Assembly (NCBI GenBank): GCA_963675745.2
Contig: CAXXWX010000015.1
Location: 160,001 to 224,000, forward strand
From: Phycisphaerae bacterium
Lineage (GTDB): Bacteria > Planctomycetota > Phycisphaerae > UBA1845 > Fen-1342
Length of the DNA: 64,000 nucleotides
Reading direction: 5' to 3'
This document shows positions 46,497 to 64,000 of the stretch, one piece after another; position 1 is the first letter of the stretch, and every line of letters starts with the position of its first letter. Under the pieces are notes generated by a model, which saw nothing but the letters and a program-made list of their open reading frames with translations, was not told the origin of the DNA and ran no database searches. The translations under genes and the position numbers were made by a program.

Positions 46497-49400
46497 CTAC
46501 GACGAGATCGCACTGACGAAATCGTCGATATCGCCGTTGTTCACATAGCTGTCGCCGTTCATATCGGCCAGCCGCAGATCGCAGTCCGGATACTGGACCA
46601 CATAGCCGTCCGGATCGGTAATCGCGGTGACGAACGGATCGATGTCGCCGTTATTGACAAAGCCGTCGCAGTTGAGATCGCCGACCTCGTAGCGGTACAG
46701 CAGGATCGGGGTCACGCACTCGTTGCCGACGCAGTCCAGCACGCGCACGCTGCCCTCGCCAACGGCACCGCCCGGCGTAAGCTCGACCGAGTAGCGCACG
46801 ATCGTGTCGCCATTGGTGAACGGATCAACCGTCAGCACCAGGTTACTCGCACCGGGCAGCAATTCGACCGCACAAACGCCCGTATCGCGGAAGATCGGCT
46901 CCTCAACACGGCCGTCATAGCGCTCCGGGAACGTGCTCGACTCGATCGTCAACGACCAGCTATCAAACGTGCCCGTGTCGTTGTCCTTGTCGTCGGCGAC
47001 CCGCAGCACGTACGTGGCGTCCGCCGAGAGACCGTCGAGCGCGAACAACGCCGGTCCGTCCTCCGGCTGGTAGGTACCGGTGAACGGGGCCTCGGACGAG
47101 GAATCGGGAATCGGCGCGGCGGCCTCATCGTCCAGGGTGGTGTCGATGAAGTTGTTGCCGGTGCTGCCGATATCGGAGAGCAGGTTAATCACACGCGGGG
47201 CGATCAGCGTCAGATCGATGTCGTCGTCGTAGGCATGCGTGATGTTGAACGTGAGGTTGACGTCCTCGATCACGTCGGTGTCCGCAACAACGATCGATGA
47301 CGACACACCAACCACGTTGTTGTCCGGGATTGGCTGGGGCAGATCGCTGCTGATATAGCGCTTGCTGTGGTTGATCGACCCGGTACACACGGGTGCCTCG
47401 GCGTCCATTTCCACGAGAATGTATGAGCGCCAGCCGCAGGCGTCCGTCACGCGAATGTAGCCGCGGCCGTTGATACCAAGCGCGACGCCGACGATGAAGT
47501 CAACGCTGCCGGCCCCGGCGGGCGGATCGGGCGTTACCATTACCAGCTCGATATTCTCGCCATACGGCGCGACTTCGACCGCGACAATGCCGCTGTCGCC
47601 GGGGCCGTTATCCGTCGCCGTGCCGATGAATTTGGCCGTCGCGGGGTCATAGCTGCCTGTGATGATCGGCGGACTCCGGTCGGCGCTGATCGCGGCCAAC
47701 GCCACCGGCACGATGGTCACGTTGCCCGCAACATCGTAGATTTCGATGTCGCCGGCGCCGGCGAAGTTCGGGTCGGTCAGTTCGACGCGGTATTCGACGA
47801 CCTCGTCGCCAGGCGTGAAGCTCGCGACCACCGTCAGGTTCGTCGCGCCGGCGGCCGGTGCGATCGACTGCACGCCGCTTTCCGGCGCAAGCTCCTGCGC
47901 GACGCCGACGTAGCGCTCTGGCCCGCAGGGGCTCTTCAGCGTCAGGGCCCAGCGGCGTAACTCGGTACGTGAGGTACCAATCATGCGGTGATCGGCGGCA
48001 TTTACCTTCCACGGGCCCGCGGCACTCTGATTCGCCAGGGCGAACATCATGTTGTCGCGCTTGTCGGTGGTGATCCCGTCGCCGATGAATTCGCCACGCC
48101 CGTCGGGCTGATGGACGCCGAGGAACGGGATCGTGCCGAGGGCTGGCTCCTCATGGGCGTCGTCGGCCACGGGCGCGTCGTCGTCGAGCGTGATCCAGAG
48201 CGTGTTCTTGGTCAGCCCGGCCGAGGCGCGGTCGTCCATGCCGACGCGGTTGATCAGTGACGCGAACTCGCCACTCTTGTTGATCGTGGCGGCCAGTCGC
48301 CCGACGTCCAGGGTATCAATCGTGATTTCGGCCTCGACTTCGCCGACCAGGAACGGCTCGGCCACCGTAATGGTGCTGGAGGCGCCGGCCGGATTGCCGT
48401 AAGGCAAATCGGCTTGTATCTCCTGCTCGAAACGCAGATCAGTCGTCACGCCGCCCGTGTTCGCCGGGCCGGTGCCATCCGCAAAACCGGTGAGATTCAC
48501 GATGCTCTGGCAGGTGTTGTCCTGCATGTCGGTGACGGTGACCGTGCCCGAGCCGTTCAGCGTCGAGTCGATCAGCGTGACGGTATACTCGACCACGGTG
48601 TCACCCGGTGTGAAGCCGGGCGGCAGATTGAGCTGGGCATTGACGGCACCAGTCAGCACAATCGACTGAATACCCGCATCGAAACCGCCCGAATCAGTCG
48701 CCAGGCCCGCGAACGTCTGAGGCCCGGCGAACGTCGCCACGACATCCAGCTTAGCGTAAACGAGCCGTGAGCCGCCATTCTGCGTGTTGTAGTCGTCACG
48801 CACGTTGAGAATCCAGGTGCCATTGGCCGGGCCGCCATTGAAGTCAGCCAGCGTGCCCTCCGGCAGCCAGGTGCCGGTGTACGGTTCATCGCCGCTGAGC
48901 AGCGGCATGAGCTCATCTGCGTCGTCGTCCCAGGTGGCATCGGTGATATTGAACGCGAGCGAGCTGCCGCGGTCGGTTTGAATCTCGACCTCGGTGAGGT
49001 CCGGCGAGGTCAGTCGGATATCGAGGTCCGCACACGAGGTCGTCTCGAATGTCGCGGTCAGATTGACGTCGGTGATCGTTCCGGCGTCGCCGATGACCAG
49101 CGGTACATCAATCCCCGTCACGGCGTCGTTGTCCGGGATGAAATAGGGACCGTCCAGGGTGCGCACCGAGCGGCCGGCCACGGCGCTGCCGGCACACACC
49201 GGCGGATCAATATCGATCATGACAAGATCGCAGGCGGCATTCCCGGTGCAGTCGATGACGCGGATTTTGCCCGAGCCGCCCTGGTTGGGGTCGGTCAGCA
49301 CGATGTCGAACGTCGCCGTCCCCGTGCCCAGGCCGGTCAGGTTAACGAGCATGAGATTCGTCTCGGCGTAAAGCTCCACGGTGCACACGCCCGTGTCACC

Positions 49401-51317
49401 CGGCTGGTTGTCGGTCACCAGCCCGGCAATCGAATCGGTGTTGAAGTCGGGCGTGAGCGCGACGACGGGGTCCATTTCCTCGGCCAGCGCGGGGGCCGCG
49501 TTGTCGATGAAGACGGCGAGCTCGTAGGTCTCGCCCGGGCCGACTTGCGAAGCGGTGCTCTGCGGCTTGACCTCGATGTAGTAACGGCCGCTGGTGCGCG
49601 CGATGAAGAAACAGGCTTGCGCGGGGTAGTCCGGCGGATCTTCGCTCGTGTTCGAGTCACTCACGTCGCTGATCAGGACGTCGCCGTCCGGATCGTAGAT
49701 CACCAGCTTGCCGTGAAACGCGTTCGGGTCGTCGTTGGCCGCGTCAAACCCGGTCGAGTCGCGCTCCGGGTCACCATCGAAGGCGATGAACACGCGGTCA
49801 CCGACCACGGCATCAAACGCGTAGAAATCGCTGTCATCGCTGCGGTCGATCACGCCGGCGTAGTAGTGCTTGCCGGTGTAATCAGCGCTGTCCATGTCAT
49901 CGTTCAGCTCGCAGCCGACGAGCGGATTTCGCGTCGCGGGGATCACACCGTTGTGGAAGCGATAGCGGTGAACGGTCTTCGTGTCGTCCACGTCATTGTC
50001 TTCCACGACGAAGTAGTGCGTGCCGGCACCTATCATCTTCGCGCCGGCGATTACCGAGCTGGACGTGCTGTAAACGTAGTGCAGGTCGTTGATGGGCGAG
50101 CTGATCCCGTCGCCGTCGTCGTCGTCAAACTCGATCACGGTCGAGCCGTCGGTGCCGAGGAACGACAGCCACGTATCCAGGGTGCTGTTGCTCGAGCCGC
50201 CGAGGTTGACCCAGGCATACACGCGGTCGCCGTCCAGGCCGGTCACCGCCCAGTAATCGGCGTCGGCCGGACCGACGAGTTGGCCGCCGTCGCGCGGATC
50301 GCCGACCGGCGTGGCGTTCACGGCCGAGCCGTTCGGCTCGATCTCGCTGAGCTCGTACTCGATCGCATCATCGATGATGAGCGCGTACGGCCCGGTGGTG
50401 TATGTGGTGCTGCCGTTGTCGACGTAGATGTAGTAGTCCGCTCCCGCCAAGAGGGTCACGACAACGAGTTCGTGCTTGGCGCCGCTGGTGCCGGCGGTGC
50501 TGTGGTTTGATGCACCAAGACACCCATCCGGAAAGACCGGTGGACAGGAGTCGTTGACGTACAGCACGCCGTCAAAGCCGCTGCTGATCAGCTCCAGCGC
50601 GTAGTCACCGCTGGCGGGGGCCGTGAACTTGTACACATGGTCGTTGCCCGGCGCGGTGGTCGGCGTCGTGCCCGACACGCCACAGCGCCCGGTGCCCTGC
50701 ACAAACGAATAGTCGTGCACGGCATTATCGATGTTGTTGAGCCGCAAGACCGGGAGTGGGCCGCTGAGTGTCTCGGCCGCGGCACAGTCGTCCGGGTTTG
50801 TGAGGTTCAGCTCATCGACGATCAACGTGAAGACAAAGTTGTCGTACGTCGCGTCGTCGTGGTCGATGCCGATGAGGTAGGTCTCATTCATCGTCAGGGC
50901 AACGTCGAGATTGACCGGCCGCGCGCTGCCCGGCGCCCGCACGCCATCCACCTCCGTCATGGTCGAATCCAGCACGTAAATCACGAAGCGGCGGTCAGAC
51001 GACCGTAGCGGCGCGTGGTGCCAGGGCGCAAGCTGGATGCGATACGTGGCTGTCACCGTCGGCGTGAAGCTGTAAAAGACATCCGGGCCATCGACGTACG
51101 GGTCGATCGCCGGCAACCCGGGGAGGGTGGTTATGCTGTCATCGGCCAATACGGTAGTACCGTAGATGATGGTTGGTAATGGGCCGCTAATCACAGCGGC
51201 GTTGTTTGGATCGTCGTTGGCCGGGCTCGGTGGCAATGCCCAAGCGGCGGCGGTCAGCCCGCCGATCGTGAGCACACTGACGAGCACCCGCAGTCTGGTC
51301 CCCAGAACGTCCTTCAT
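46497..51317 (-). CDS. Large secreted protein with PPC-like and three proprotein-convertase P-like domains and dockerin-like C-terminus
   Basis: Signal peptide; EIEPNGS/ELNDD-type PPC-like units; three (I/V)xxVxxxxx(I/F)...DDxA...G.(W/Y) P-domain-like units; [17 protein letters not shown]. Confidence 0.85.
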   Translation of the reverse strand: MKDVLGTRLRVLVSVLTIGGLTAAAWALPPSPANDDPNNAAVISGPLPTIIYGTTVLADDSITTLPGLPAIDPYVDGPDVFYSFTPTVTATYRIQLAPWHHAPLRSSDRRFVIYVLDSTMTEVDGVRAPGSARPVNLDVALTMNETYLIGIDHDDATYDNFVFTLIVDELNLTNPDDCAAAETLSGPLPVLRLNNIDNAVHDYSFVQGTGRCGVSGTTPTTAPGNDHVYKFTAPASGDYALELISSGFDGVLYVNDSCPPVFPDGCLGASNHSTAGTSGAKHELVVVTLLAGADYYIYVDNGSTTYTTGPYALIIDDAIEYELSEIEPNGSAVNATPVGDPRDGGQLVGPADADYWAVTGLDGDRVYAWVNLGGSSNSTLDTWLSFLGTDGSTVIEFDDDDGDGISSPINDLHYVYSTSSSVIAGAKMIGAGTHYFVVEDNDVDDTKTVHRYRFHNGVIPATRNPLVGCELNDDMDSADYTGKHYYAGVIDRSDDSDFYAFDAVVGDRVFIAFDGDPERDSTGFDAANDDPNAFHGKLVIYDPDGDVLISDVSDSNTSEDPPDYPAQACFFIARTSGRYYIEVKPQSTASQVGPGETYELAVFIDNAAPALAEEMDPVVALTPDFNTDSIAGLVTDNQPGDTGVCTVELYAETNLMLVNLTGLGTGTATFDIVLTDPNQGGSGKIRVIDCTGNAACDLVMIDIDPPVCAGSAVAGRSVRTLDGPYFIPDNDAVTGIDVPLVIGDAGTITDVNLTATFETTSCADLDIRLTSPDLTEVEIQTDRGSSLAFNITDATWDDDADELMPLLSGDEPYTGTWLPEGTLADFNGGPANGTWILNVRDDYNTQNGGSRLVYAKLDVVATFAGPQTFAGLATDSGGFDAGIQSIVLTGAVNAQLNLPPGFTPGDTVVEYTVTLIDSTLNGSGTVTVTDMQDNTCQSIVNLTGFADGTGPANTGGVTTDLRFEQEIQADLPYGNPAGASSTITVAEPFLVGEVEAEITIDTLDVGRLAATINKSGEFASLINRVGMDDRASAGLTKNTLWITLDDDAPVADDAHEEPALGTIPFLGVHQPDGRGEFIGDGITTDKRDNMMFALANQSAAGPWKVNAADHRMIGTSRTELRRWALTLKSPCGPERYVGVAQELAPESGVQSIAPAAGATNLTVVASFTPGDEVVEYRVELTDPNFAGAGDIEIYDVAGNVTIVPVALAAISADRSPPIITGSYDPATAKFIGTATDNGPGDSGIVAVEVAPYGENIELVMVTPDPPAGAGSVDFIVGVALGINGRGYIRVTDACGWRSYILVEMDAEAPVCTGSINHSKRYISSDLPQPIPDNNVVGVSSSIVVADTDVIEDVNLTFNITHAYDDDIDLTLIAPRVINLLSDIGSTGNNFIDTTLDDEAAAPIPDSSSEAPFTGTYQPEDGPALFALDGLSADATYVLRVADDKDNDTGTFDSWSLTIESSTFPERYDGRVEEPIFRDTGVCAVELLPGASNLVLTVDPFTNGDTIVRYSVELTPGGAVGEGSVRVLDCVGNECVTPILLYRYEVGDLNCDGFVNNGDIDPFVTAITDPDGYVVQYPDCDLRLADMNGDSYVNNGDIDDFVSAISS

Positions 51318-51740: not shown

Positions 51741-52652
51741 TTATGGCAGCTTCTCCAGCACCGCCACACGCTCCTCTCCGGGAGGGTGCGTGCGGTAGTG
51801 GTCACGCAGCTCCTTGCCAATCCGGCCGAGCGTGCCGTCAGGTTCGGCATGCTGCGGCGACGGGATCAGTTCTGTCATGCGGCGTAAGAACGCCAGACGC
51901 TCCTGCTTGGACCGGCCGATTTTCCGCATGGTGTCATAGGACCACAGATCGGCTTCAAACTCGTGTTTCTCACAGTAGCCGACGGCGATGTTCCGGTAGA
52001 GGAACATAACGACTCCAGCGCCCAGGTCACCGCCGACCTCTCCCGCGGCGCCCGCATACCCAGCGCCGCGCAGCACGTGCTTGTGCTCGATGTGGCCAAT
52101 CTCGTGACCGAGGACAAACTGGAGTTCGGCGTCGCTGCGTGTTGCGTCGATCAACCCGCGATTGACGTATACATAGCCCCCCAGATGCGCAAACGCGTTA
52201 ATCTCGTCTGAGTCGATGATGTAAAACGAGTAAGTCAGCTCCGGACGCCGGGAATGGACGAGCAAGGGCGTCGCCAGTCGTTTCATGCGAGCGAGCTGCT
52301 GCGGATTGTTCAGGAGCGTGTGCTCGCGTCGCACGGTCTGATGCACCTGCCGGCCATACTCGATCTCCTGCTCGATCGTGAGCGGCAGGATCTCACCGCC
52401 GATCTCGTCGGCGGCGCGCGTGATCTCGTGGAAGACCTCGGCCGCGGTTGAGACCGCCGCGGGGCCGTCTTCCGGCAGACGTTTTCGCACAGCCTGCTCC
52501 CATTCGTCGAGTTGCTCCTTGGTAAGGTCGATGGCGGCCTCACCGCTACCCTTGACGGTGTCGTAGCTGTTGCGCCGGCAACCACGCGTCATGAAAGCCG
52601 CAAGGACCGTGATCGACAGCAGGATGAGCAGGAGCCGGGTGGTTGCGTGCAT
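51741..52652 (-). CDS. M48 family zinc metallopeptidase, membrane-anchored
   Basis: INAFAHLGGYVYVNRGL, VLGHEIGH, EFEAD, THPPGEER. Confidence 0.9.
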   Translation of the reverse strand: MHATTRLLLILLSITVLAAFMTRGCRRNSYDTVKGSGEAAIDLTKEQLDEWEQAVRKRLPEDGPAAVSTAAEVFHEITRAADEIGGEILPLTIEQEIEYGRQVHQTVRREHTLLNNPQQLARMKRLATPLLVHSRRPELTYSFYIIDSDEINAFAHLGGYVYVNRGLIDATRSDAELQFVLGHEIGHIEHKHVLRGAGYAGAAGEVGGDLGAGVVMFLYRNIAVGYCEKHEFEADLWSYDTMRKIGRSKQERLAFLRRMTELIPSPQHAEPDGTLGRIGKELRDHYRTHPPGEERVAVLEKLP

Positions 52653-52670
52653 GTCTACGCCCTTTCCGTA

Positions 52671-55076
52671 TCAAGGCTCGCGCGGGCCGGCCCCCGGCCG
52701 CGGCGCGCCAGCCGTCCAGTTCTCGTTAATCCGGCGGGCAACCGTCCGACAGGCCCGTTCCACCAGGGAATCAAATGGCTCGACGGTTCCCTGTGCGTCA
52801 CTCTTGACCGCGACCGTCGGCGTGTCGGGCGTCTTGACGATCGGCCCGAATTCAAAATCCGTTACCGTGTCCAGCACGCTGAGCTCGAGCGCATAGTGCC
52901 AGTTGAACCAGCCCGCCGGATAATCGCCGCGCTGCATCCCCGTGCAGGCGGCGGTGGCGTGACCGCAGATCAGGATGTCGCAGGCGTTTTCGCGCGCCGT
53001 GCGAACGAGGGTGGCGCGATCGGCCGTGGCGGGCACGTCCACACTCACGATCCGCGCGGCCTGGTCCTGCAATTCACGAGCCAGCCAGCGCTCCACCGTT
53101 CCGCGCTCGGGTGAGGCATCCGCGGAAAGCGTCTGCGCTACGACCACCATGATGGCGGGCTCCCCTGCCAGCAGCGGCGGCCGCCAGAGGTCTTGCGCGG
53201 TGACCGTATACTCGCGCTCGATCACGCTGTCAGGTGTGTGCGACCGCAGGGTGACGTATACGGTGCGACCGTCGGTTGGCAGGTCGCCGACTTCGCAGTA
53301 CTCCCCGCGCACCGTCGTGCTGCAAAGGTCATCGAGGCGCGGCGAGGTTCCAAGCAGCAGGTCACGGCGCTCCACCGCGGTTCCATTGCTGACTGCAAAA
53401 CGCACGCTCGGCCCGTTGAGCTGGGCGCCGTCGCGCGGACTGGTGATCTCGGCGGCCACTGGCTCGGGGGGGGTGTCCGTGTCATCGACTACGCTCGCGG
53501 AGGCAGGCTCGGAAACCGCGTCTCCGGCGCGCACAGACGCCGCCGTTGGCGCCGACAGACCGGCCCGCGTGCTCCAGGCCAAAACCGCCAGCAGAAACAC
53601 AACCGGCACGAGGGCCACGGCCCAACGGGTGGATCTCCGTCTGCGGCCGGCCGGTCGGGGCGGTTTATCAGCGGACTTGGTCGGCGGCACGACGGTACCA
53701 CCATCGCGGTCCTCGTGCAGCCAGCGCGTTAGATCGTCAATCAGCGCGGCACAGTCGGCGTAGCGCGCAGCGCGGTCTTTGGACAAGCACTTCTGGCAGA
53801 TGGCCGCCATGCGCGCCGGCACCGACGGCACACACTCGCGCGGCGGCTTGGGCTGCACGCAGACGACCTGGTGGATGGCCTGTTCGAGCGTATCGCCATC
53901 AAAGGCCGGCGTGTACGTCAACATCTCGTACAGCGTGGCGCCGAGCGAGAAGATGTCGCTGCGGGCATCGATCGGTTCGCCGCGCATCTGCTCCGGACTG
54001 CCATAGCGCGGCGAGCCGAGCAGATCACCGGGCTGGGTCATGCCGGTGTCCTGGTTGAGCTGCTTGGCCAACCCGAAATCCGCGACCACAATGCGGCCAC
54101 GATCGGTGAGCATTACATTCGCCGGCTTGATATCGCGATGGACGACGTCGCGCTGGTGTGCATAGCGCAGGGCCTCGGCAATCTCGATGGTCCAGCGCGC
54201 CACCTGACGGTGGTAACGGTCGTGAAACCACGCCGGTTGTCGCGCGCGCAGGGTCTTGGCGTCGAGTGTGTGGGCGCGCAGCTCCGCGCAGCGTTTCGCC
54301 ACGTCCGTCAGCGTCGGCCCATCGACAAGCTGCATTACGATGTATGCCAGATCGTCGCGCTGTCGGTAGCGGTGGATGCGGACGATGCCCGGATAGTCAA
54401 GTCTCGCCGCCCGTTGCGCTTCCAGTTGGAAGCGGCGTCGGAAGCCTTCCTCCAGGAACAGGCTCGAGCGCAAGACCTTCACGGCAACCGGGCGATCCAG
54501 CGAGCGCTCGTAGGCACGGTAGACCGTCGCCTGTCCGCCGCGCCCGATCAAACCCAGAATCTGGAGATCTTCGTCCAGCACCGGGTGCGGGGATTCAAGC
54601 TCCGGCGGTGACTGGGATGGCGACGAAGGTTCACCGCCCGGTTCGAGGAAATCGGGGCTGTCTTCTTCATCTTTCAGATACAGTTCAACCGCCTCGCGCA
54701 GCTCAGGGTCCGCCCCGCAGGCCTCGGTGAGATACGCGGCACGACGCTCCGCCGGCAGCTCCCGCACGCTGAGATAGAGCGCTCTGATGCGCTGGTGGCG
54801 GCCGCGTCCGCCTGTTGTCTTATCATCCGGCGGCGGCGTGGCCGGGCCGCCGACAAACGTCTGCTGGCTTGGACCGTGGAGGATATCGGCGAGCGTCGGC
54901 CCGTCCGCGCCGCGCCGCGTCTCGTACTCCTGCCGGCACCGCGCGCAACCGCGCAGATGAACGCGCAACCGTGCGCGCCGCTCACGAGGCAAGCCGGCGC
55001 CAAACAGGGCTTCGTAATCAGAATCAGTCAGGCACTCGCTCATCGTCTCTCTCTCGCTGACGTCATGCGTGCTCAT
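52671..55076 (-). CDS. Transmembrane Ser/Thr kinase with ZAS motif and extracytoplasmic alpha/beta domain
   Basis: HLRGCARC; GRGGQATVY, VAVK, HRDIKPAN, DFGLAK; TM WAVALVPVVFLLAVLAW. Confidence 0.92.
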   Translation of the reverse strand: MSTHDVSERETMSECLTDSDYEALFGAGLPRERRARLRVHLRGCARCRQEYETRRGADGPTLADILHGPSQQTFVGGPATPPPDDKTTGGRGRHQRIRALYLSVRELPAERRAAYLTEACGADPELREAVELYLKDEEDSPDFLEPGGEPSSPSQSPPELESPHPVLDEDLQILGLIGRGGQATVYRAYERSLDRPVAVKVLRSSLFLEEGFRRRFQLEAQRAARLDYPGIVRIHRYRQRDDLAYIVMQLVDGPTLTDVAKRCAELRAHTLDAKTLRARQPAWFHDRYHRQVARWTIEIAEALRYAHQRDVVHRDIKPANVMLTDRGRIVVADFGLAKQLNQDTGMTQPGDLLGSPRYGSPEQMRGEPIDARSDIFSLGATLYEMLTYTPAFDGDTLEQAIHQVVCVQPKPPRECVPSVPARMAAICQKCLSKDRAARYADCAALIDDLTRWLHEDRDGGTVVPPTKSADKPPRPAGRRRRSTRWAVALVPVVFLLAVLAWSTRAGLSAPTAASVRAGDAVSEPASASVVDDTDTPPEPVAAEITSPRDGAQLNGPSVRFAVSNGTAVERRDLLLGTSPRLDDLCSTTVRGEYCEVGDLPTDGRTVYVTLRSHTPDSVIEREYTVTAQDLWRPPLLAGEPAIMVVVAQTLSADASPERGTVERWLARELQDQAARIVSVDVPATADRATLVRTARENACDILICGHATAACTGMQRGDYPAGWFNWHYALELSVLDTVTDFEFGPIVKTPDTPTVAVKSDAQGTVEPFDSLVERACRTVARRINENWTAGAPRPGAGPREP

Positions 55077-55088
55077 CTTGTCACCTGT

Positions 55089-56345
55089 TTAGTCCGATCG
55101 TCGCAGCCGGGTCTCGATCCGATCGCCGCGCGCGTCGAGCATTACGAGTTGGTAATTGCCGAAACGCATGCGGGTGAGCAGATCTTGCAGTTGCTGTCGC
55201 GTGAGGCGCGTTCGCACGGCGAGCGTCACGACCTCCCCGATGCTCTCGTGTTCCTGCACGTGCAACACGTGCTCCCGCGCCGCAATAGCTTCGCGCATAC
55301 TCAGTGTTCTTTCCGGGCTGGTGTTCTGGATGGTGACGAAGACGGTCTGGCCGAACTGCCCAAGCTGGGCATAGGCCAACACCAGCTCCTCGACGCACCG
55401 CAGGCCTAATGCGCGACCGCTGTGCTGGAGGGCACGAACCGCGCCTTCATCGCCCGAATATTCCGAGGCCCAGGCTTCGCTGACCGGCGGCAACCCGCGC
55501 AGCAGCTCACCAGTCGCTGACGAGTGAATCACGGCCTGTGTCGAGGTCTTGTAGTCGGTCAGCCGGCGGGCCGGATTCGGATCGCCGGGCCGACCGGGGA
55601 TTTCGTGGACCTGTGCGCTGCCGACGACGTAAAACGGCGCGCCCAGATCGGCCTGCGCGTGGCGCAGCGCCGCGGCGTTGGCCTCGCCGTCGGCACGCGC
55701 GATCCCCATGGCCTTCAATTGCTCCCAGCGGCTGCGGACACGCACATCGAGGTTGAACTCCTTGAGTGCGCGCTCCAGTTCCGCGGCGACGTGCCCGCCG
55801 GCTTCCGAGCCCGGTTCGTCAAACCAGACCATCAGCCGCGGCGGGACTTCCGCGCTGAGCACCCGGCTGAGCGCGTCACAAAGCTCGCGCAGGCGCATCT
55901 CGTCAAGCTCGGCGGTGATCCTGACCGTGTACTCCTCGTGGGCGAAGCGGGGGCGGCGTCGGTCGGTGATCCGCACGTCGAACACACACTCACGCGCGAG
56001 CAGCCGGCGCGCCGCCGGGTAAATCCAGCCCGAGCGCAGCGGTTCCAGTGCCGGCCCGGCGTAACGCTGAAGGAAATTCTCGCGCGCGTTTTGCAGAGCC
56101 TCCTCCAGCCGATCGCCACGGGCGCGCCCCGAAACCACGCGCCCCGGGCCGGGCGCCGAGAGCGTCGCCGCCGGCACCGGCGCGGTGCTTGCTTCCGGCG
56201 GCGGCGGGCTGGCGTAGCTCGGTGGTCGCCGCCGAACCGGCTGCGGTGATCGGTATCGCGCCAGGGGATCCTCATCGCGGGCCGTGCAGTTGGTTGTCCC
56301 AACAAGCATGATGGCCAAAAGCACCGTTGCGAACGCGCGATGCAT
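55089..56345 (-). CDS. Exported protein/lipoprotein with FlgT/CsgG-like alpha/beta domain
   Basis: Signal peptide with Cys; ALQNAREN, YTVRITAELD, PRLMVWFDE...GAPFYVVGSA. Confidence 0.65.
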   Translation of the reverse strand: MHRAFATVLLAIMLVGTTNCTARDEDPLARYRSPQPVRRRPPSYASPPPPEASTAPVPAATLSAPGPGRVVSGRARGDRLEEALQNARENFLQRYAGPALEPLRSGWIYPAARRLLARECVFDVRITDRRRPRFAHEEYTVRITAELDEMRLRELCDALSRVLSAEVPPRLMVWFDEPGSEAGGHVAAELERALKEFNLDVRVRSRWEQLKAMGIARADGEANAAALRHAQADLGAPFYVVGSAQVHEIPGRPGDPNPARRLTDYKTSTQAVIHSSATGELLRGLPPVSEAWASEYSGDEGAVRALQHSGRALGLRCVEELVLAYAQLGQFGQTVFVTIQNTSPERTLSMREAIAAREHVLHVQEHESIGEVVTLAVRTRLTRQQLQDLLTRMRFGNYQLVMLDARGDRIETRLRRSD

Positions 56346-56347
56346 GG

Positions 56348-57529
56348 CTAGTGACCTCCTTCGGCAACGCTGCCGACAAGCACAGGTTCGCCGCGACCGG
56401 ACGGCTGCGCGCCGTGACGCGCCTGCTGGGGCATCTGAACCGGAGTGATAACGGAGCCGTTGCTATCGAGCGCATCCGACACGCGTTCGATGGCCCGGCG
56501 GGAGAGGCGGATGTAGCCGTCGTCGTCCTCGCGCTCGTCGTCGTCGCGTTCCTTGACGACGAGAGCCTGACGGTAGTGTGTCAGCGCACCTAACAGGTTG
56601 CCGCTTTTTTCGGCAATCAGCCCGAGACCGAAGTGGGCCTGGTAATCGTCGGCGCTACGGCCGACCAGCGCCAGCTCAAACGCGCTTCTCGCCGCTTCGT
56701 ACTCGCCGCGCTCGATCAGCTCGACGCCCGCGCGGCAGTGTTTGTTGCGCGATGATTCGAGCGGGATGCTCACGGTGCGGGCACCACCGAGCAGGCCGCG
56801 CACGAATTCATCCGCCGCTTCCTCCAGCACGGGGGCCACGAGCCGATCAACGGGGGGCATCTCGCTGAAGTCACGATGGCGCGCCAGGAAACCGACGAAG
56901 TTCGGCTTTAGCTCCTCGCGCTTCGGTTCAGCGCGAATGGTCCGCTGACACAAGACACTCCCGTTGAAAAGCTCAATGCGGACCCGCCCGCTGGGACAAA
57001 TCTGGCGTCCGACAGCGCGGAACACTTGCCGCCGGTTTTCGCCAACCGCCCGCTCGACGCCCCATTGCGACTCTGTAACCTCGACGGTGCAATCGATCAC
57101 GACAAGAGCATCCGCCCCTATCAGCTTGCCGTATTCGGCGGCGGCCCCGGGACGAACCAGGTCAGATCGCTGCAATTTGTGTTCGTCGAGCACGCGTTGC
57201 ATTTCGGGGCCGCGCAAGACCGTCTGCACATGCAAACCATCCTGCATGTCACGCCGACCCAGCAATGTGCCGATCCGGTTGGCAACCATCGGCGCGTAGT
57301 TCTCCACGTAAGTCCGCGACCCGCTGACCGGGCTGTCCGCCTTGAATGGCGGCCGCGCCGGCTGCGACGCGTCATAGACCACCGCGATGGTTTGGATTTC
57401 AGCGGGCAACTCCACGCGCGGCCGCTGGTGGGAAATCGCGACCAGCGCCTTCTTATGACAGCCCGCGCCACCGGGAAACAGGAACACAATCACAAACACC
57501 AACGCCAGTCCCGTACATCTGCGGTTCAT
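56348..57529 (-). CDS. CsgG-like lipoprotein with C-terminal TPRs
   Basis: RBS GGAGG; lipobox GAGC; RGPEMQRVLDEHKLQRSDLV...YGKLIGADALV; TPR AHFGLGLIAEKSG. Confidence 0.78.
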   Translation of the reverse strand: MNRRCTGLALVFVIVFLFPGGAGCHKKALVAISHQRPRVELPAEIQTIAVVYDASQPARPPFKADSPVSGSRTYVENYAPMVANRIGTLLGRRDMQDGLHVQTVLRGPEMQRVLDEHKLQRSDLVRPGAAAEYGKLIGADALVVIDCTVEVTESQWGVERAVGENRRQVFRAVGRQICPSGRVRIELFNGSVLCQRTIRAEPKREELKPNFVGFLARHRDFSEMPPVDRLVAPVLEEAADEFVRGLLGGARTVSIPLESSRNKHCRAGVELIERGEYEAARSAFELALVGRSADDYQAHFGLGLIAEKSGNLLGALTHYRQALVVKERDDDEREDDDGYIRLSRRAIERVSDALDSNGSVITPVQMPQQARHGAQPSGRGEPVLVGSVAEGGH

Positions 57530-57615
57530 CGGTTGACCTCCCATTAGTTGTGTCTTGGCGACGCGAATACCCACTGGCACCATGCCTGACAGCCACCGCG
57601 CCACGTGTCCGCTCT

Positions 57616-57655: not shown

Positions 57656-57926
57656 GCCGTAGTGCGGGAGGAGTTCGCACGCTGTCCTGCCGCAACTGTC
57701 ATGTGCCACGGAATCGAGGGAGTGGAGTGCCAGTGTCGTTGCCAGCTCGGCTGTTTGGCGCGTATGGCTGCGTAGCGGCCTGCGCCTCGCAGGCCGTCGA
57801 TGTATGACGAGTGTCCTCAACCTCCACAGACCTTCGTCCATAAACGGCGTTTCCAAGATCGGGCGGCCGGCGAGGCGCCGGCCGTTACACGTTACGCCGA
57901 AGCATGGCGCGAAACACGGAACGCCC

Positions 57927-60497
57927 TTAGTGGGAACGGTGCTGGGGCGTTATGCGCTTGGCGGCCGGCCAGCGGGCTTGCAGTCGCACGAGCAGGCGGC
58001 GCAGTGCCGAGCGGCCTTCTTCCACAACCGGCAGAATGTCAATCCGCCCATACGGGCCGTCCTTACGGTGCAGGAAATAAACGCCGGCCGCGCTGTAGAT
58101 GCTCGTGAACACCAGCAGTGCCACGATGCTCGCAAACCACCCGTGCGAGTGCGGATCGGTCGGGAAGTGCTGCGGGTCTAGCAGTGAGCGCAAGGCATCG
58201 AGCCCCCAGTAGCACGGGATCAACGCCTTGCCAATCAGTGCCAGCGTCCCTTCCAGCGGGCCCAGCGCCTGTGTGAACAGGATCTGCGGCATGATCAGGA
58301 CCACCATCGTTATGACCGCCTTGTCCGTCGTGTCTACGGCACAACTCGCCGCCAGCCCGAGTGCGGTCGCACTGAACGCGATCAGGAACATGGTGATCAG
58401 CAGGGCCAACTCGCTGCCGGCGGCCAGGTCGAGCGGTCCGCCCCAGCGAACAAACAGGTACATCACCAACACCTGCACCGCATTGACCACGCCCAACACC
58501 GCCAGCTTGCTGCCCAGATACGGCAGGATGTGCAGCGTGGCGAAACGCTCGTGCAAGTAGATGCGCAGCTCCTTCACGACCTCTCGAATCGACCCGAACA
58601 GGCCGAGGAAGAACATGCCCACCACCACGGCGAACGTGATGTTCATCTGCCGCGCGCCTTCGGTGGCCCCTTGAGGCAAAGATCCGAAACGGTAGCTCAC
58701 CAGCACGCCGAGTATCGGCGCGAGGCCCAGCAGCAGCGCCAACGCGCGCGCGTCGTTCAACAGCACGCGCGTAAAACGCCGCAACAACACGCGAAACTGC
58801 GTGGCGTACTCGGGTGAGCGCACCACGCGCAGCAAATCCCCGGGCCGGAGCTTGGTACGTCGTTGTTCAAGCGCCGCGTTGTCGGTTTGCGCCTCGAGAC
58901 AGCGACCAGAGCAAGCCCGCGTTTCCTCGAAGCGCTGGGCCCACTCCTCGGCGGTATGGCGCGGTTCACGCCAGAAGACCTCCCGGATATTGTCCACGCC
59001 GAAGTGTTGCTTGAGCTCGGCTGGCGTCCCGTAAAACGCCAGCCGCCCCTGGATGAGATAGATCACCTTGTCGCAGGCTTCGAGGCTGTCGGCGTAGTGC
59101 GTGATGCACAGTGTGGTAACACCGCTGGCGGCCACATCGCGGAAGATCCGCATCATCTCGGCCTCAGTCCGCAGATCCAGACCACTGGTGGCCTCGTCCA
59201 GGAAGAGCGCATTCGGCCGACTCAACAGCTCGATCGCGATTGACACCCGCTTCCTCTGCCCCCCCGACAGGTTGCGCACGGCGACGCCGCGCCGTTCAAA
59301 CAGGCCGACATCACGCAGCACGCGGTCTACGTTTTGCTCGAGCTCTTCGGTTGACGTATCCGGCGGCAGACGGATTTCCGCCGCGTAAGTGAGAGCATCG
59401 GCGACGGTAAGCGCATCGTGGAAGATCAGCTCTTGCGGGACGTAGCCGATGCCGCCCTTGAAGGCGTCGAAGTGGTCGTAGAGGTTGCGGCCGTTGTAGA
59501 GCACCGCGCCCGCGGTCGCCGGCCGACGGCCGTTCATCGCGTCCATCAGCGTCGATTTACCGCAGCCCGCCGTGCCGAATATGCCGACAAACTCCTGCGG
59601 CGCGATCTTCAGACTGACGTCGGCCAGTAGTGGCGTCAGGCGCCCATCGTCCCGGCTGACTACCTGCTTGCCGAGACCCACCAGCTCTATATTGATGCCG
59701 GCGTCGCCGACCTGTTGGGCATGTTGCACGGCGTGCGACGTCAGTTGCCGCCCGTCAAACGCAAGGTCGAGTGATCCGAACCGAACATGATCACCCGCCC
59801 GCAACTGTGCCCGGCCGCGCAGCCGTTGCTCGTTAACGAACGTGCCATTGGCTGACCGCAAGTCACGGATGATCAGGCGCTCATCACGCCGTGTAATCTC
59901 CGCGTGACGACGCGAAACGGTCGGATTCGCCAACTGGCAATCACAATCCTGCCCGCGGCCGATGATCGTGACGGGCCGCTCAAGCCGGATCGCGATGTTC
60001 GGCATCGCCGGTGCATGTCGGCGGCGCGGATCAATCAGTGTGTCCAGCACCTCGGGATCACGAGCCGGGCGCCGCCCCCCCGATCCGGCGCCTGGCATCG
60101 CTGTCTTGGAGGGATCCGTTCGCACGTCGAGATCAGCCGCGGCCGACAGCGGCTGGGCGACCCGCCCGCGCTCGCTGTCGCCGGCACACGACTGCAAGGC
60201 CACGCGCAGAGTCGTGGCGCCAAGCCGCAGCGCGTCGCCGTCGCCAAGCGCCGTCGAAGCGGACACCTGCTGCCCGTTGCGATATGTACCGGACGTGCTG
60301 CCCAAGTCCATTAGCACCAGAACGTTTGACTCGTAGCTGATCTGGCAGTGGACACGACTGACCGCGGTGTCGTTCAGCACGACATCTGCGTCCTCGCCAC
60401 GCCCCAGCAGAATATGTCCGCTGCCCGAGCACTCACGTTCGAAGATCGGCCGCGAGTTGGCATGCTGGCCGGCGGTGAGCGTCAGCCGGTAATGCAT
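57927..60497 (-). CDS. FHA-FHA-ABC transporter fusion (Rv1747-like architecture)
   Basis: Two FHA domains (GR...VSRxH...DLxSxxGT), Walker A GTAGCGKST, LSGGQ, FLDEATSGLD, C-terminal ABC-2 TM helices; RBS GGGAGG. Confidence 0.93.
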   Translation of the reverse strand: MHYRLTLTAGQHANSRPIFERECSGSGHILLGRGEDADVVLNDTAVSRVHCQISYESNVLVLMDLGSTSGTYRNGQQVSASTALGDGDALRLGATTLRVALQSCAGDSERGRVAQPLSAAADLDVRTDPSKTAMPGAGSGGRRPARDPEVLDTLIDPRRRHAPAMPNIAIRLERPVTIIGRGQDCDCQLANPTVSRRHAEITRRDERLIIRDLRSANGTFVNEQRLRGRAQLRAGDHVRFGSLDLAFDGRQLTSHAVQHAQQVGDAGINIELVGLGKQVVSRDDGRLTPLLADVSLKIAPQEFVGIFGTAGCGKSTLMDAMNGRRPATAGAVLYNGRNLYDHFDAFKGGIGYVPQELIFHDALTVADALTYAAEIRLPPDTSTEELEQNVDRVLRDVGLFERRGVAVRNLSGGQRKRVSIAIELLSRPNALFLDEATSGLDLRTEAEMMRIFRDVAASGVTTLCITHYADSLEACDKVIYLIQGRLAFYGTPAELKQHFGVDNIREVFWREPRHTAEEWAQRFEETRACSGRCLEAQTDNAALEQRRTKLRPGDLLRVVRSPEYATQFRVLLRRFTRVLLNDARALALLLGLAPILGVLVSYRFGSLPQGATEGARQMNITFAVVVGMFFLGLFGSIREVVKELRIYLHERFATLHILPYLGSKLAVLGVVNAVQVLVMYLFVRWGGPLDLAAGSELALLITMFLIAFSATALGLAASCAVDTTDKAVITMVVLIMPQILFTQALGPLEGTLALIGKALIPCYWGLDALRSLLDPQHFPTDPHSHGWFASIVALLVFTSIYSAAGVYFLHRKDGPYGRIDILPVVEEGRSALRRLLVRLQARWPAAKRITPQHRSH

Positions 60498-60695
60498 CGG
60501 TCTCGGCACCTCCCAGTATGGCGGGCGACGGGCCGCCGGGCGACCGCGCCGCGAACACCGATGTAGTGCGGTTTCAACACAGTTCTGACGTTCTACGTCG
60601 GCCACGGGGGGCCGACGCTACTTCTGCGTCTGACGTTCTGCCACTTCTGCGACGAGCCGTCGTGCCGGCGGCCAAGTGGCAAGTCGCTACTTGGA

Positions 60696-60775
60696 GAGGC
60701 GTCAAACGCCGCGTTCCCCGCGCAAGAAAATTGTGACGATTTTCGCGTGGGGCTGCTTATCACTTCACGCCTCAT
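60696..60775. promoter_or_regulatory. Symmetric divergent promoter element (copies A and C)
   Basis: GAGGCG..CCCCGCGC..GAAAATTGT-G-ACGATTTTC..GCGTGGGG..CGCCTC imperfect inverted repeat between divergent genes. Confidence 0.55.
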
Positions 60776-60790
60776 TGGCCGGAGGCACGA

Positions 60791-61528
60791 ATGACCATGC
60801 ATCGACCACAATCAACGCTCCAGCTTCAGGAAGCCGCGCGTCCGACGCAAACGCAACCACAGCGGGTACCCGCACGCGTTGTTCCCCGGGACCTGAACCC
60901 GGCGGCGCTACCGGCCGGCGAACGCGCGGCTTCGTCACGGGATCAAACGGCACCCGCCACCGCCGCCGGACGTCCCCGGGGGCGGGCCTGGAAGCTGCTC
61001 GGCGCTGCGGCCGCCGCCCTGGTCGCATGGGCCGTGCTGTTGGCGCCATCTCCACCTGATGGGCCCTCGCACCCGCGCTACCACCACCACATTGAATCTC
61101 CGGCGACAGAGATCATTGTCGGTGACGAGGACATCGACCGGGCCAACACTCAGGCAGCGCGCACCGGTAACGAGGCGACTCTCGCATCCGAACCGCTGGT
61201 CGCAACGCTCACGCCGGGCGCGCGGGCGGAGATACGCGCCGGTGATGCGCGCTATTACCACATCTTCCTTTTTGATAACTGCGACGAAGACGGCGACATC
61301 GTGCAGGTGTACTTCAATGGGGCGCTGCTCGGGGAGGTCCCGATTACCCACGCCGGCACGACTATCTCCGTGCCAGTCACGCAGGGGGCGGCCGGCCTGC
61401 TGCAAATCGTCGCCGTTCACGACGGCCAGGGTGGCATCACGGTCGCATTTCAGACCAGCGCCGGGCGCCGTTATTCCCGGATTCTCCAGGTCGGCGAGAG
61501 CCAGGTGGTCAACGTCGTGGCCCCCTGA
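60791..61528 (+). CDS. Single-pass membrane protein with C-terminal beta-rich domain
   Basis: RBS GGAGG; Pro/Ala-rich N-terminus; TM LLGAAAAALVAWAVLL; FDNCDEDGDIVQVYFNG. Confidence 0.75.
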   Translation: MTMHRPQSTLQLQEAARPTQTQPQRVPARVVPRDLNPAALPAGERAASSRDQTAPATAAGRPRGRAWKLLGAAAAALVAWAVLLAPSPPDGPSHPRYHHHIESPATEIIVGDEDIDRANTQAARTGNEATLASEPLVATLTPGARAEIRAGDARYYHIFLFDNCDEDGDIVQVYFNGALLGEVPITHAGTTISVPVTQGAAGLLQIVAVHDGQGGITVAFQTSAGRRYSRILQVGESQVVNVVAP

Positions 61529-61717
61529 CGCTCAACGGGAGCAAAGCCGTGGTCAACCGTGTCAAAACACTGCTTCAGCAATCACCGGCGTTTCGCTATG
61601 CCGCGCTGGTCGCCGCAATTGGAGTGGCGGTAATGCTGCTCGGGGCGGGCCCCGGCAATACAAGCGCGGCGGGATGACCATGAACCGGAGCACACACGGA
61701 TGAGGACCGGAGGCACC

Positions 61718-62992
61718 ATGCGAGCAAGCCAGCAGAGCGGTCTGGCCGGGCCGCTGGCCAACCCGACCGTGCGGCTGGCACTTCAGGCGCTGATGCTGTT
61801 CTTCATCCAGCGTTACCTCTATGTGCGTCTGCCTTTGCTCACAGTGGCAATCACCGTTTTTGCGGGGTTGGTCGCCGTAACCGCTTACCTGCTGCGGTAT
61901 CGGCGGGCCCCGCTCGTGAAGTGCTATCGCCACACAGCTTGCCGCTGGTTCATCGATCTCGTCTGTCGCTGGACGCGCGAGCAACCGCCGCTGACTGAGC
62001 CCTGCGCTGACTCCGACAACTCACCATCCCCGACAGTGCCGCCGCCGTGTCCGCCACAAACGCCGGCCAAGCCCGGCGCGCGCCCCAGCTCGACAACCGA
62101 GTTGCTGGCGACCGACGGCCTCGATTTCGAGTTGTTGCGCGATAACCTCGCGGACGTCGTTCGCGGATTCGACAATAACATCGGTACGGCCGTGGGGCGC
62201 ATACGACAGAATATGCGGCTGCGGACGGATCGCACCAACCAGGTCGCCGACGCGCCGCTGGGGGTGTTCCTGATCGTCGGTCCGGAGGGTGTCGGCAAGC
62301 GGCATTTTGCGCAGCAGCTCGCGCGCGGCCTTTACCGCTCAGCCGGCATCACCAGCATCGACCTGCGCCGTACCGCGGACGCCGCGGACAGCGTCGATAG
62401 CGTGCTCGGTTTCGACGATCGCAGCGATGGGACGCTCATTCGCGCCGTGCGCACACAGCCGTGCCAGGTGCTGCTGCTCGAGCACGTTGATTGCGCGAGT
62501 CCGGAGCTGCTCAATCGTCTGCGCGGCGTCTTGCTCAACGGGTTCCTGCGCGACGAGCGAAACGGGCACACCATCGCGTTCTCGAATTGTGTGATCGTGT
62601 TGACGACCACGCTTGGCACTGAGGCGTTGGCGCGTCTCGAGGTCGATGACGCCGAGGGCTCTGGCGCCCACCGGCAAACCGCTGATGTCCTGGCCGCGGC
62701 CACGCGTTTGCCAAAGCCGTTCCTGGCTCAGGTCCACGACATTTTGTCGCTACAGCCCCCGCCTCCGCCGCAAATGGCAGAGGTCGTGGCGCTCGTAATG
62801 GAGCAGGAGTGCGATCGCCATCGGCTGCTGCTGCGTTATGTCGCCGCCACCATCATTGCCGACGAGGTGCTCGCACTGGATCGAGAGCATGGCTATGCGC
62901 CGCTGCGGGCGCGCGTGCGCCGACGCCTGCGCGACCCGATTGACCGCGCCCGCCAGGCCGGCGCTGCACATTTGACCCTGCTTGATACGTGA
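61718..62992 (+). CDS. Membrane-anchored, degenerate ClpB-D2-like AAA+ protein
   Basis: RBS GGAGG; N-terminal hydrophobic helices; PLGVFLIVGPEGVGKR, VLLLEHVD, GFLRDERNGHTIAFSNCVIVLTT. Confidence 0.85.
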   Translation: MRASQQSGLAGPLANPTVRLALQALMLFFIQRYLYVRLPLLTVAITVFAGLVAVTAYLLRYRRAPLVKCYRHTACRWFIDLVCRWTREQPPLTEPCADSDNSPSPTVPPPCPPQTPAKPGARPSSTTELLATDGLDFELLRDNLADVVRGFDNNIGTAVGRIRQNMRLRTDRTNQVADAPLGVFLIVGPEGVGKRHFAQQLARGLYRSAGITSIDLRRTADAADSVDSVLGFDDRSDGTLIRAVRTQPCQVLLLEHVDCASPELLNRLRGVLLNGFLRDERNGHTIAFSNCVIVLTTTLGTEALARLEVDDAEGSGAHRQTADVLAAATRLPKPFLAQVHDILSLQPPPPPQMAEVVALVMEQECDRHRLLLRYVAATIIADEVLALDREHGYAPLRARVRRRLRDPIDRARQAGAAHLTLLDT

Positions 62993-63004
62993 GGAGACAC
63001 TCAC

Positions 63005-64000
63005 ATGGCCGAGGACATTCTCGCACGCCTGACCGACAAGCAAGTCCTGCTGCAACTGCTGGAGCAGGCTGACCGCGGCGCACGGCGAAAGATCATTGAA
63101 TCCGACATGTGCGCGCATCTCAGCGCGCGGGTCCGCGGACAGGATCACGTAAACGGTGATCTCGCTCGCCTGATCCGCCTGGAGTGGGGCAAGCAGAGGC
63201 GCACCAAGCCCATTGCCAACCTGCTGTTCCTCGGGCCGCCGGCCGTCGGCAAGACCGAGCTGGCCAAGGCCCTGGCCGAGTACCTGTTCGGCGACGAACG
63301 CAACATGCTGCGATTCAACGGCCCCGACTTCAGCGGGCCCGAGGGCAAAACCCGGCTGATCGGCACGCCGACCGGATATGTCGGCGCCGATGCCGGCGGA
63401 CAGTTGACCCGCCCGATGTTCGGCAACCGTCGCCGGCTGATTCTGTTTGACGAAATCGAGAAAGCCTACGACGGCGTTTATGACCTGTTTCTGCCGCTCC
63501 TGGGTGAAGGGCAACTCACCGAGCAGGGATCCGGACGCGTTGCCGACTACTCCGAATCGATCGTCGTGATGACCACTAACGCCGAGTTTGAGGCGATCGG
63601 CAAGATCACTGAGCAACACGAAGACGAAAACGAGTGCATGGCGGCGGTGAAGGCCCACCTGACGGCCGCCAAGGTCTTCCGGCCCGAGTTATTCAGCCGC
63701 ATCGACCGCGTTTATGTGTTCAAGCCGCTTGAGGGCGTGGTCGTCGCCGAGATCGCGGTCTTGAAGATGGTCGATCTGGCCGCCTCCTATGGCCTGACGC
63801 TTGAGTATGTCGAGCCCGACCTGGTTTTCGAGGCGCTGCAGAAGACGGCCAAGTTCGAACGCTACGACGCCCGCGAAGTCGAGCGCATGCTCGTGCCGAT
63901 GGTCGGCGAGGCGCTCCTGCTCGCACGCGAAGCCGGCGCCCGCCGTATCCGCCTCGAAGTGTCGGAAGACGGCGTTCTCGAAGTAAATCCCGCTCAGGCG
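63005..64000 (+). CDS. Stand-alone ClpB-D2-like AAA+ ATPase (runs off the window; absent from the ORF track)
   Basis: RBS GAGGAG; my translation is open to 64000: RVRGQD, LFLGPPAVGKTELAKALA, RLIGTPTGYVG, ILFDEIEKA, MTTN, FRPELFSRID. Confidence 0.92.
   Translation, partial: MAEDILARLTDKQVLLQLLEQADRGARRKIIESDMCAHLSARVRGQDHVNGDLARLIRLEWGKQRRTKPIANLLFLGPPAVGKTELAKALAEYLFGDERNMLRFNGPDFSGPEGKTRLIGTPTGYVGADAGGQLTRPMFGNRRRLILFDEIEKAYDGVYDLFLPLLGEGQLTEQGSGRVADYSESIVVMTTNAEFEAIGKITEQHEDENECMAAVKAHLTAAKVFRPELFSRIDRVYVFKPLEGVVVAEIAVLKMVDLAASYGLTLEYVEPDLVFEALQKTAKFERYDAREVERMLVPMVGEALLLAREAGARRIRLEVSEDGVLEVNPAQA

Follow-up and report, generated by a model that had tools for sequence, protein, structure and literature searches.

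A conserved and apparently undescribed membrane module of three genes, based on duplication of a ClpB D2 domain, whose anchored copy has become a pseudo-ATPase

Skd3 (human CLPB) is a stand-alone D2-type AAA+ protein (ATPase associated with diverse cellular activities) that is ankyrin-fused, mitochondrial and homomeric and is not known to have a dead partner, and in NSF it is D2 that forms the inactive tier. Inactive units are also described for Pex1, whose D1 is reported in PMC4490564 to have lost Walker B, the arginine finger and the pore aromatics together and to have a reduced Walker A and a wider pore, and for LAP1, a luminal protein that according to PMC4358337 has neither Walker A nor the C-terminal domain but provides its partner with an arginine finger, R563. 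Among bacteria, the Dodola system (DolA/DolB) contains a ClpB-like domain (PMC11514479), and the iSTAND and MoxR-vWA ternary conflict systems, which have planctomycetes among their hosts, are presented in PMC7159879 as a constant NTPase core combined with an inactive NTPase and variable effectors. Here we analyse a 64,000-nucleotide stretch of contig CAXXWX010000015.1 from a Phycisphaerae bacterium (hereafter the window), at the end of which two adjacent genes encode D2-type AAA+ proteins, one membrane-anchored and dead (A) and one intact (B), preceded by the gene of a single-pass membrane protein (U). The three make up a real, conserved membrane module on a duplicated ClpB D2, the anchored copy of which turned into a pseudo-ATPase once. 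Full-text searches of the literature returned no description of the module (loci of this kind may be listed in the supplements of PMC7159879 and PMC3482391), nor of any membrane-anchored pseudo-ATPase partner of a bacterial ClpB-type domain.

Set beside ClpB, ClpA, ClpC and ClpV, A and B share the D2 fold and motifs and the tandem order of two AAA units, which are fused in two relatives, but here both units are D2-derived and separately encoded, N-domain, D1 and M-domain are missing, and one unit is anchored in the membrane and dead. Only the C-terminal (D2) part of the ClpB, ClpA and ClpV models aligns to either protein, which bears out a preliminary description of this stretch that had denied them a ClpB N-domain and D1; both reading frames, the 12-bp gap between them and all ten motifs it quoted are likewise in place. 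The only strong Pfam match of A, and also of B, is to the D2-type family AAA_2. The AlphaFold model of A (mean predicted local distance difference test score, pLDDT, of 87) contains a full AAA+ fold with its lid, and its best Foldseek match is NBD2, the second nucleotide-binding domain, of T. thermophilus ClpB (4fcw, target TM-score 0.77), so that profile and structure alignments both confirm the suggested kinship with ClpB D2; the D2-type fold with a pre-sensor-1 hairpin and lid marks likeness to class I Hsp100 proteins. A and B resemble Skd3 in being stand-alone D2-type AAA+ proteins, and the A profile matches it at an E value of about 1e-19. That B is a multidomain Clp protein cut by the window edge, one of the outcomes named beforehand as refuting, was ruled out, since its frame stops at 333 aa just past that edge (Table 1). 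The IGF/L motif for ClpP docking occurs in 0/43 B and 0/16 intact A proteins and in 7/18 outgroup Clp proteins, and because B lacks it, remodelling rather than proteolysis is the likely role of B.

In the model of A, residues 16-37 and 39-61 form a helical hairpin that is followed by two more helices and by a disordered linker with 35% Pro across residues 89-125. The transmembrane helices and Pro-rich linker first ascribed to A are thus both modelled, with the qualification that in the window's copy helix 2 alone is clearly hydrophobic (Kyte-Doolittle 2.25, against about 1.0 for helix 1); most A orthologs have two hydrophobic segments. The AAA+ domain of A probably faces the cytoplasm.

Motifs were counted on non-redundant rows (<90% identity), excluding the extra B copies of loci L047, L162, L173 and L240, and all loci were ascertained through B, which was the query of the metagenome scan. 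From the motif set of active AAA+ proteins (Walker A K-T, Walker B D-E, sensor 1, arginine finger and sensor 2) A keeps the Lys alone. The earlier statement that it has lost essentially every catalytic residue therefore holds for most of them, the exceptions being the Walker A glycines and Lys, which are retained along with the adenine-side N-linker. Across the 24 dead A proteins the Walker A Lys is present in 23, the position after it is never Thr and is Arg in 19, Lys in 4 and Gln in 1 (basic in 23/24), the first Walker B Asp has become Glu in 19/24, and the catalytic Glu survives in 1/24, as does the sensor-2 Arg. Sensor-1 Asn is found in none (0/24), and neither is an arginine finger (0/24), with no Arg within 2 columns of what we take to be its position in ClpB, in agreement with the first reading of A; the pore loop has shrunk from 14 to a mean of 5.5 residues, and no dead A retains more than one of six residues. 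The slowest-evolving segments of dead A are Walker A (relative rate 0.58) and the lid (0.69), and the arginine-finger face is relaxed (0.97-1.11). By pairing with the Glu of Walker B, the Arg that follows the Walker A Lys may stand in for Mg2+. By comparison, an intact type of A carries the whole catalytic set (K-T, D-E, sensor-1 Asn, arginine finger and sensor-2 Arg) in 16/16 sequences, and B has its catalytic set, its aromatic pore loop and an arginine finger of its own in 43/43.

Though rare, the U-A-B module occurs in at least five phyla. A search with B in GTDB genomes gave 53 loci at 45-62% identity, in Planctomycetota, Verrucomicrobiota, Acidobacteriota, Gemmatimonadota and Pseudomonadota, and from metagenomes the best 80 of 146 loci were taken. 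Among 135 B loci (the window included, some of them near-duplicates) A is dead in 31, intact in 65 and not seen in 39, all but one of which have <4.5 kb of upstream DNA. The distribution is very patchy: U was found in 0/60 relatives of the window's genome (G000), in 1/400 genomes of its own phylum and in 0/400 genomes of the phylum of G405, and a search for dead A in 400 same-phylum genomes, with 5 candidates scored per genome, gave four matches, of ClpB length. On viral contigs 1/80 loci was a B ortholog, inside an element with phage- and integrative-conjugative-element (ICE)-like genes, and a phage origin of the module was rejected on that count. This viral-collection contig (L082/L190) holds an intact-type module with Sel1-like transmembrane proteins, its gene labels having been assigned by eye.

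In our trees A and B form one clade against Clp D2 domains (support 100/100), within which dead and intact A are sisters (99/97), dead A is a single clade (100/100), and B proteins of intact-type loci form a clade (96/85) apart from those of dead-type loci. This topology shows that A and B derive from duplication of one stand-alone ClpB-D2 domain. The ratio of nonsynonymous to synonymous substitution (dN/dS) in dead A is 0.03-0.25 over 29 pairs (0.25, 0.15, 0.12 and 0.03 in the least saturated ones), and the frame is open in the dead-A orthologs examined. Judged from the single clade, the low dN/dS and the shared substitutions, the dead state is old and selected and arose once, with dead A under purifying selection and the degenerate residues shared across orthologs (n=24), a point that the preliminary description had proposed to check. 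It had also reasoned that intact orthologs would make A a locally decaying gene; intact loci do exist, and even outnumber the dead ones (65 against 31), but they form a sister clade, which shows one ancient inactivation and not local decay.

Several lines of evidence point to a physical link between A and B. Dead A lies immediately before B in 31/31 loci, so that the pair is conserved as first proposed. A search for longer B relatives returned two in-frame fusions of transmembrane segment, dead A and B (P0156 and P0157), in D1-D2 order; P0156 has a second fused allele that is 98.8% identical, and unfused rows lie between P0156 and P0157 on the tree, so the two are of separate origin. Moreover, when B and the AAA domain of A were predicted as a 1:1 pair, the complex scored 0.40 against 0.00 for the best control, with runs agreeing in at least 88% of contacts and partner pLDDT of at least 77. 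The mark applied is reached by 116/157 solved complexes and by 2/215 mismatches, and at 0.60 or below it covers 18 solved complexes and both mismatches; the prediction thus lends weak support and may reflect likeness to solved ClpB rings. Since adjacency, two independent fusions and this prediction agree, a membrane-tethered A-B complex is likely, which upholds the early proposal of a hetero-oligomer in which the dead copy anchors or regulates the active one, though not an alternating ring, which would have no complete active site given that dead A has no arginine finger.

We favour, with a probability of about 0.5, an arrangement in which a membrane-anchored tier of dead A carries a motor tier of B. 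A and B would then act jointly where the inner membrane faces the cytoplasm, with A using its retained nucleotide pocket and its lid to assemble a ring that neither hydrolyses nucleotide nor has pore loops and that the hairpins anchor, and with B docking onto this ring as a second tier and, as sole motor, threading polypeptide by way of its aromatic pore loop. A ring of dead subunits alone is suggested because cis and trans residues and the pore loop were lost jointly while Lys, N-linker and lid were kept. The result would be a split, membrane-tethered, two-ring Hsp100-like machine with a dead tier like Pex1 D1, with which dead A shares the joint losses and the reduced Walker A as far as these are set out for Pex1 in PMC4490564; Pex1/Pex6, however, are eukaryotic AAA proteins of the classical clade with dead and live tiers in one chain, so that the likeness is analogy and not family-level homology. 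In the sister (intact) type both tiers would be active. The machine would most likely act on unstructured cytoplasmic tails, those of U as well as those of variable neighbours, and in the window's subgroup, as the most speculative step, its clients might include the toxin-like proteins encoded behind the VirD4-like ATPase, which would be unfolded, released or handed over.

Three other readings of the pair have to be weighed against these two tiers. In the first, A and B share a single ring or spiral, and a B oligomer would be capped and held at the membrane by one A subunit or a small number of them; its ATPase would be damped as well, because any B site beside A would face a subunit without arginine finger. 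This is the less probable arrangement, but it would suit the slow lid and nucleotide pocket next to the relaxed arginine-finger face, the divergent A copy of locus L270, which aligns only from sensor 1 to the lid, and a complex prediction that concerned a 1:1 pair of paralogous AAA domains; it is at odds with the 1:1 fusions, which would force alternation with no complete site left, and with a helix-end Leu that is invariant in dead A (24/24) and that we take to be a likely ring contact on the other face. The resemblance to Torsin with LAP1/LULL1 that was pointed out at the start, according to which A would alternate with B and activate it, is improbable. Here too a D2-like or D2-derived ATPase is joined by an inactive AAA+ partner with a membrane anchor N-terminal to the dead domain, and one intact A and one extra copy have weak Torsin Pfam matches; yet LAP1, as described in the source cited above, supplies an arginine that A cannot supply, B has its own finger, and A keeps the Walker A Lys and C-terminal lid and is probably cytoplasmic. 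Least of all do we believe that A is a functionless decaying duplicate or an assembly artefact. Although A evolves faster than B (long branches) and intact A orthologs exist, dN/dS does not exceed 0.25, frames are open, the dead clade is single and ancient, the predicted fold is intact, and a contig assembled from a public run, possibly the window's own sample, covers 60595-63277 with 3 differences, 0 of them in motifs; local decay was rejected for the family on dN/dS and tree.

U, the third core gene, was absent from the preliminary description, as were the downstream VirD4-like ATPase and the toxin-like genes. U consists of a Pro-rich N-tail, a transmembrane segment at about residues 69-87 and a beta-sandwich domain that is probably periplasmic. 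Its model is confident (pLDDT 90), and it is present in 72/77 loci with at least 2.5 kb of upstream DNA, namely 21/22 dead-type and 51/55 intact-type loci. No family match was found in Pfam, NCBIfam, PADLOC or PHROG, and the atlas has it in unnamed clusters only; the fold search gave generic beta-sandwiches (best Z 5.6) and no clear match, which is a lack of match and not proof of a new fold. The U profile gathers 897 clusters (50% identity) at E<=1e-3. A second U in genome G420 (L271:9014-9739) stands alone among housekeeping genes with no AAA genes nearby, so that U alone does not mark the module.

What sets the dead type apart in its surroundings is a coupling-type (VirD4/TraD-like) gene within 7 kb downstream, seen in 11/11 dead-type and 0/34 intact-type loci. 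The window's VirD4-like protein matches Pfam TrwB_AAD_bind and T4SS-DNA_transf above cut-off with intact Walker motifs, and its family is present in 6/6 non-Pirellulaceae dead-type genomes, with a close ortholog in 0/16 others; in L006 the gene is split into two open reading frames (ORFs). Pirellulaceae dead-type copies have an unrelated TraD-like gene and sit in integrase-flanked elements. In L007, L022, L030, L031 and L044 of this family we observed after B a cassette of a helix-turn-helix (HTH)-kinase-like gene, a Cas4-like transmembrane protein (not seen in L031), a kinase, two small unknown ORFs and the TraD-like gene, integrase-flanked where checked; one genome has three copies of it. 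L270, a remote locus that was reached via U alone, combines U, an almost erased A with multiple transmembrane segments, an intact B and a third kind of TraD-like gene, and one of its ORFs is weakly like an ADP-ribosyl cyclase toxin (E 0.29). Intact-type loci instead encode one further single-pass protein, whose domain is a beta-helix, YCF48-like or Sel1, the Sel1 assignment being our own reading.

Toxin-like ORFs follow the VirD4-like gene in 8/8 non-redundant loci with enough DNA. Six of them have Pfam toxin-type matches, to endonuclease NS_2 (L003), HNH (L006, just under cut-off), papain-fold Gln_amidase (L047, L208) and zeta toxin (L002, L195), one (L027) has weak PDB matches, and the window's own ORF has an atlas lead, a weak one, to TNT-like proteins. 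No homologs of the latter were found among longer proteins, and a similarity to the L003 ORF was rejected for want of an alignment. Effectors of type IV secretion carry basic-tail signals, and basic C-tails (+4 or more) occur in 6/16 hand-picked ORFs against a background of 12%. Two different toxin-like ORFs of L003 (11347-13084) share a helical N-terminus and a near-identical basic, Pro-rich C-terminus, as expected of a common trafficking signal. Small Pro-rich ORFs also lie beside dead-type modules (L003:5289-5804, L004:2162-2689, L027:13151-13657, L208:5600-6478 and L002:11055-11369), most with single or repeated R-x-x-G-F-type motifs and 4/5 with an LY-x-x-SGR-like C-terminal motif, and are a possible adaptor or client family.

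Two biological roles are conceivable for the dead-type operon, effector handling and anti-phage suicide. Our tentative proposal is a toxin-handling machine in which an A ring, a B ring, U as sensor or scaffold and the VirD4-like ATPase would export or trigger exchangeable toxins without VirB. In its export form, itself no better than a doubtful possibility, the U-A-B-VirD4 operon would deliver polymorphic toxins independently of VirB with the AAA pair as unfoldase, a reading that draws on the toxin-like ORFs and their basic tails, on CsgG-like neighbours in some loci and on the secretion genes. VirB4 and VirB10 were not found in G000, which is 91% complete and in which, as in any metagenome-assembled genome (MAG), absence is no proof; full VirB4 occurs in 1/6 relatives and was not found in G211. 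The likeness to VirB/VirD4 type IV secretion would then be confined to the coupling ATPase and the basic-tailed toxin-like ORFs behind it, no relaxase or VirB genes standing beside the locus. Against it count the lack of a channel gene conserved across loci, immunity-like genes noticed by eye in L047 and L208 only, incomplete MAGs and hand-chosen ORFs in the tail count. Somewhat less probable still is an envelope-sensing suicide or anti-phage system, in which U would sense the outside and the AAA pair together with the HerA/FtsK-type ATPase would free cytoplasmic effectors such as a nuclease, an NAD-consuming enzyme or a zeta toxin. The visible immunity genes mostly missing beside effectors, the patchy distribution, SIR2 and Cas3 genes near one Pirellulaceae copy, and the theme of constant NTPase core, inactive NTPase and variable effectors presented in PMC7159879 would fit such a system, as would partial PADLOC matches of B to DolB and PDC-M37B and of the VirD4-like protein to mad8. 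These are domain-level matches, however, the partner genes that those systems would require did not turn up, ECF-kinase pairs and not defence genes flank the window's locus, and intact-type loci have the periplasmic beta-helix, YCF48-like or Sel1 proteins in place of effectors. Dodola and PDC-M37 share the ClpB-like domain, but U, the VirD4-like protein and the toxin-like ORF match no PADLOC model of their cognate partners, and the available sections of PMC11514479 describe no membrane anchor, U or dead paralog. Unlike the MoxR-vWA systems, the module has D2-type ATPases, a membrane anchor and no MoxR-vWA couple: no such family was seen among recurrent neighbours, and the one vWA gene is in L208 only; VirD4 is absent from the main text of PMC7159879, where ClpB occurs in a reference alone. 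Simple co-travel of genes on mobile islands is a further possible account. We suggest only guardedly that a new system for toxin export or defence has this module at its centre.

A number of points speak against the two-tier, toxin-handling machine as drawn here. Two members of the fusion cluster consist of the B half alone, the fusions may be recent stop-loss or read-through alleles and fit side-by-side packing as well as stacking, and the complex prediction gave a score and no interface. The Arg ending the helix before Walker A, conserved in 21/24 dead A proteins, could be a displaced trans-acting residue; many dS values exceed 1, and the window's own A, whose closest relative is 36% identical, has no dN/dS. 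No coupling ATPase lies near the intact-type loci, which make up about two thirds of the total, similarity among the three families of coupling ATPase is limited to short stretches, the single origin of dead A means that the link to them is not independent evidence, and the mobility of the integrase-flanked Pirellulaceae elements could by itself explain it.

A conjugative element at the window's locus (Table 1) was rejected: G000 has no relaxase PF03432 (a single Replic_Relax gene lies on another contig), no integrase was recognised by eye among the called genes, and GC content is flat along the locus. Dependence on type VI secretion was suggested by VipB, which is present in 12/17 dead-type and 6/31 other genomes; it occurs in 105/151 genomes of the host family of G402, a host background that probably explains the co-occurrence, and is not adjacent to the module. 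The type VI secretion cluster of G000, which includes VipB genes and one for a ClpV-like ATPase, lies on a different contig (G000:C1:151030-161634), and the genome has full-length ClpB, ClpC and ClpV-like genes elsewhere, the names being our reading.

Table 1. Features at the end of the window and directly beyond it (coordinates with the prefix L001 lie outside the window)
Feature	Position	Strand	Description
U	60791..61528	+	245-aa single-pass membrane protein; third core gene
A	61718..62992	+	424 aa; membrane hairpin, Pro-rich linker, dead ClpB-D2-like AAA+ domain, intact lid; alternative start ATG at 61700
Altered Walker A of A	62279..62302	+	Lys kept, Thr to Arg
Other motif starts in A	62405, 62471, 62600, 62717	+	Pore-loop remnant, Walker B, sensor 1, box VII
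B	63005..64006	+	333-aa soluble D2-only AAA+ ATPase; stop ends 6 nt outside the window
Motif starts in B	63233, 63374, 63440, 63569, 63686	+	Walker A, pore loop, Walker B, sensor 1, arginine-finger region
VirD4/TraD-like ATPase	L001:8026-10008	same as B	660 aa; starts 18 bp after B
Toxin-like ORF	L001:10256-11215	same as B	319 aa, basic tail
Low-complexity ORF	L001:11226-11621	same as B	131 aa
FHA-FHA-ABC transporter, divergent	57927..60605	-	Similar genes in loci L162 and L195; putatively linked accessory gene
Lipoprotein-like protein	56348..57604	-	CsgG-like segment and TPR; putatively linked accessory gene
Divergent operon	51741..56345	-	Unknown 418-aa protein, Ser/Thr kinase, M48 peptidase; putatively linked accessory genes

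Kinases and M48 peptidases of the kind listed in Table 1 turn up again in some related loci, and a scan for promoters and terminators gave nothing above chance. Between the lipoprotein and ABC genes, at 57796-57864, many run contigs share both flanks and have differing middles of 10-30 letters at a depth far above the surroundings, as might be expected of a short repeat whose central part varies. The gene at 46497-51317 encodes a protein of secreted type and 1606 aa, in which two proprotein-convertase P domains and, judged by eye, a dockerin-like tail are present. Gene order varies elsewhere. In L016 the U-A-beta-helix block is inverted relative to B, and in L028, L035, L036 and L037 (Gemmatimonadota) the order is B-U-A next to a nusG-rplK-rpoB cluster named by eye. 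In L162 (1580-8057) an FHA-ABC gene and a PP2C-M48 fusion precede two tandem B copies, upstream of which there is no A, and a third, B-derived AAA copy with altered Walker B stands between B and the VirD4-like gene in L047 (9027-9893) and also in L240.

Taken as a whole, the family offers a natural series in which both copies are active, the anchor copy is dead, the anchor copy is almost erased (L270), or the two are fused, and this series makes testable how an AAA+ tier turns into a scaffold and which residues persist on the way, such as the Walker A Lys, the Thr to Arg and the Asp to Glu changes. If the intact-type sister indeed keeps an ancestral state of two active rings, the two types would show the before and after of pseudo-enzyme formation in nature. 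U, with about 900 clusters at 50% identity, is a potential new marker family. Finally, should the link to the coupling ATPase and the toxins prove functional, the dead-type operon would represent a new system for secretion or defence among largely uncultured members of the Planctomycetes-Verrucomicrobia-Chlamydiae (PVC) group, Acidobacteria and Gemmatimonadota.

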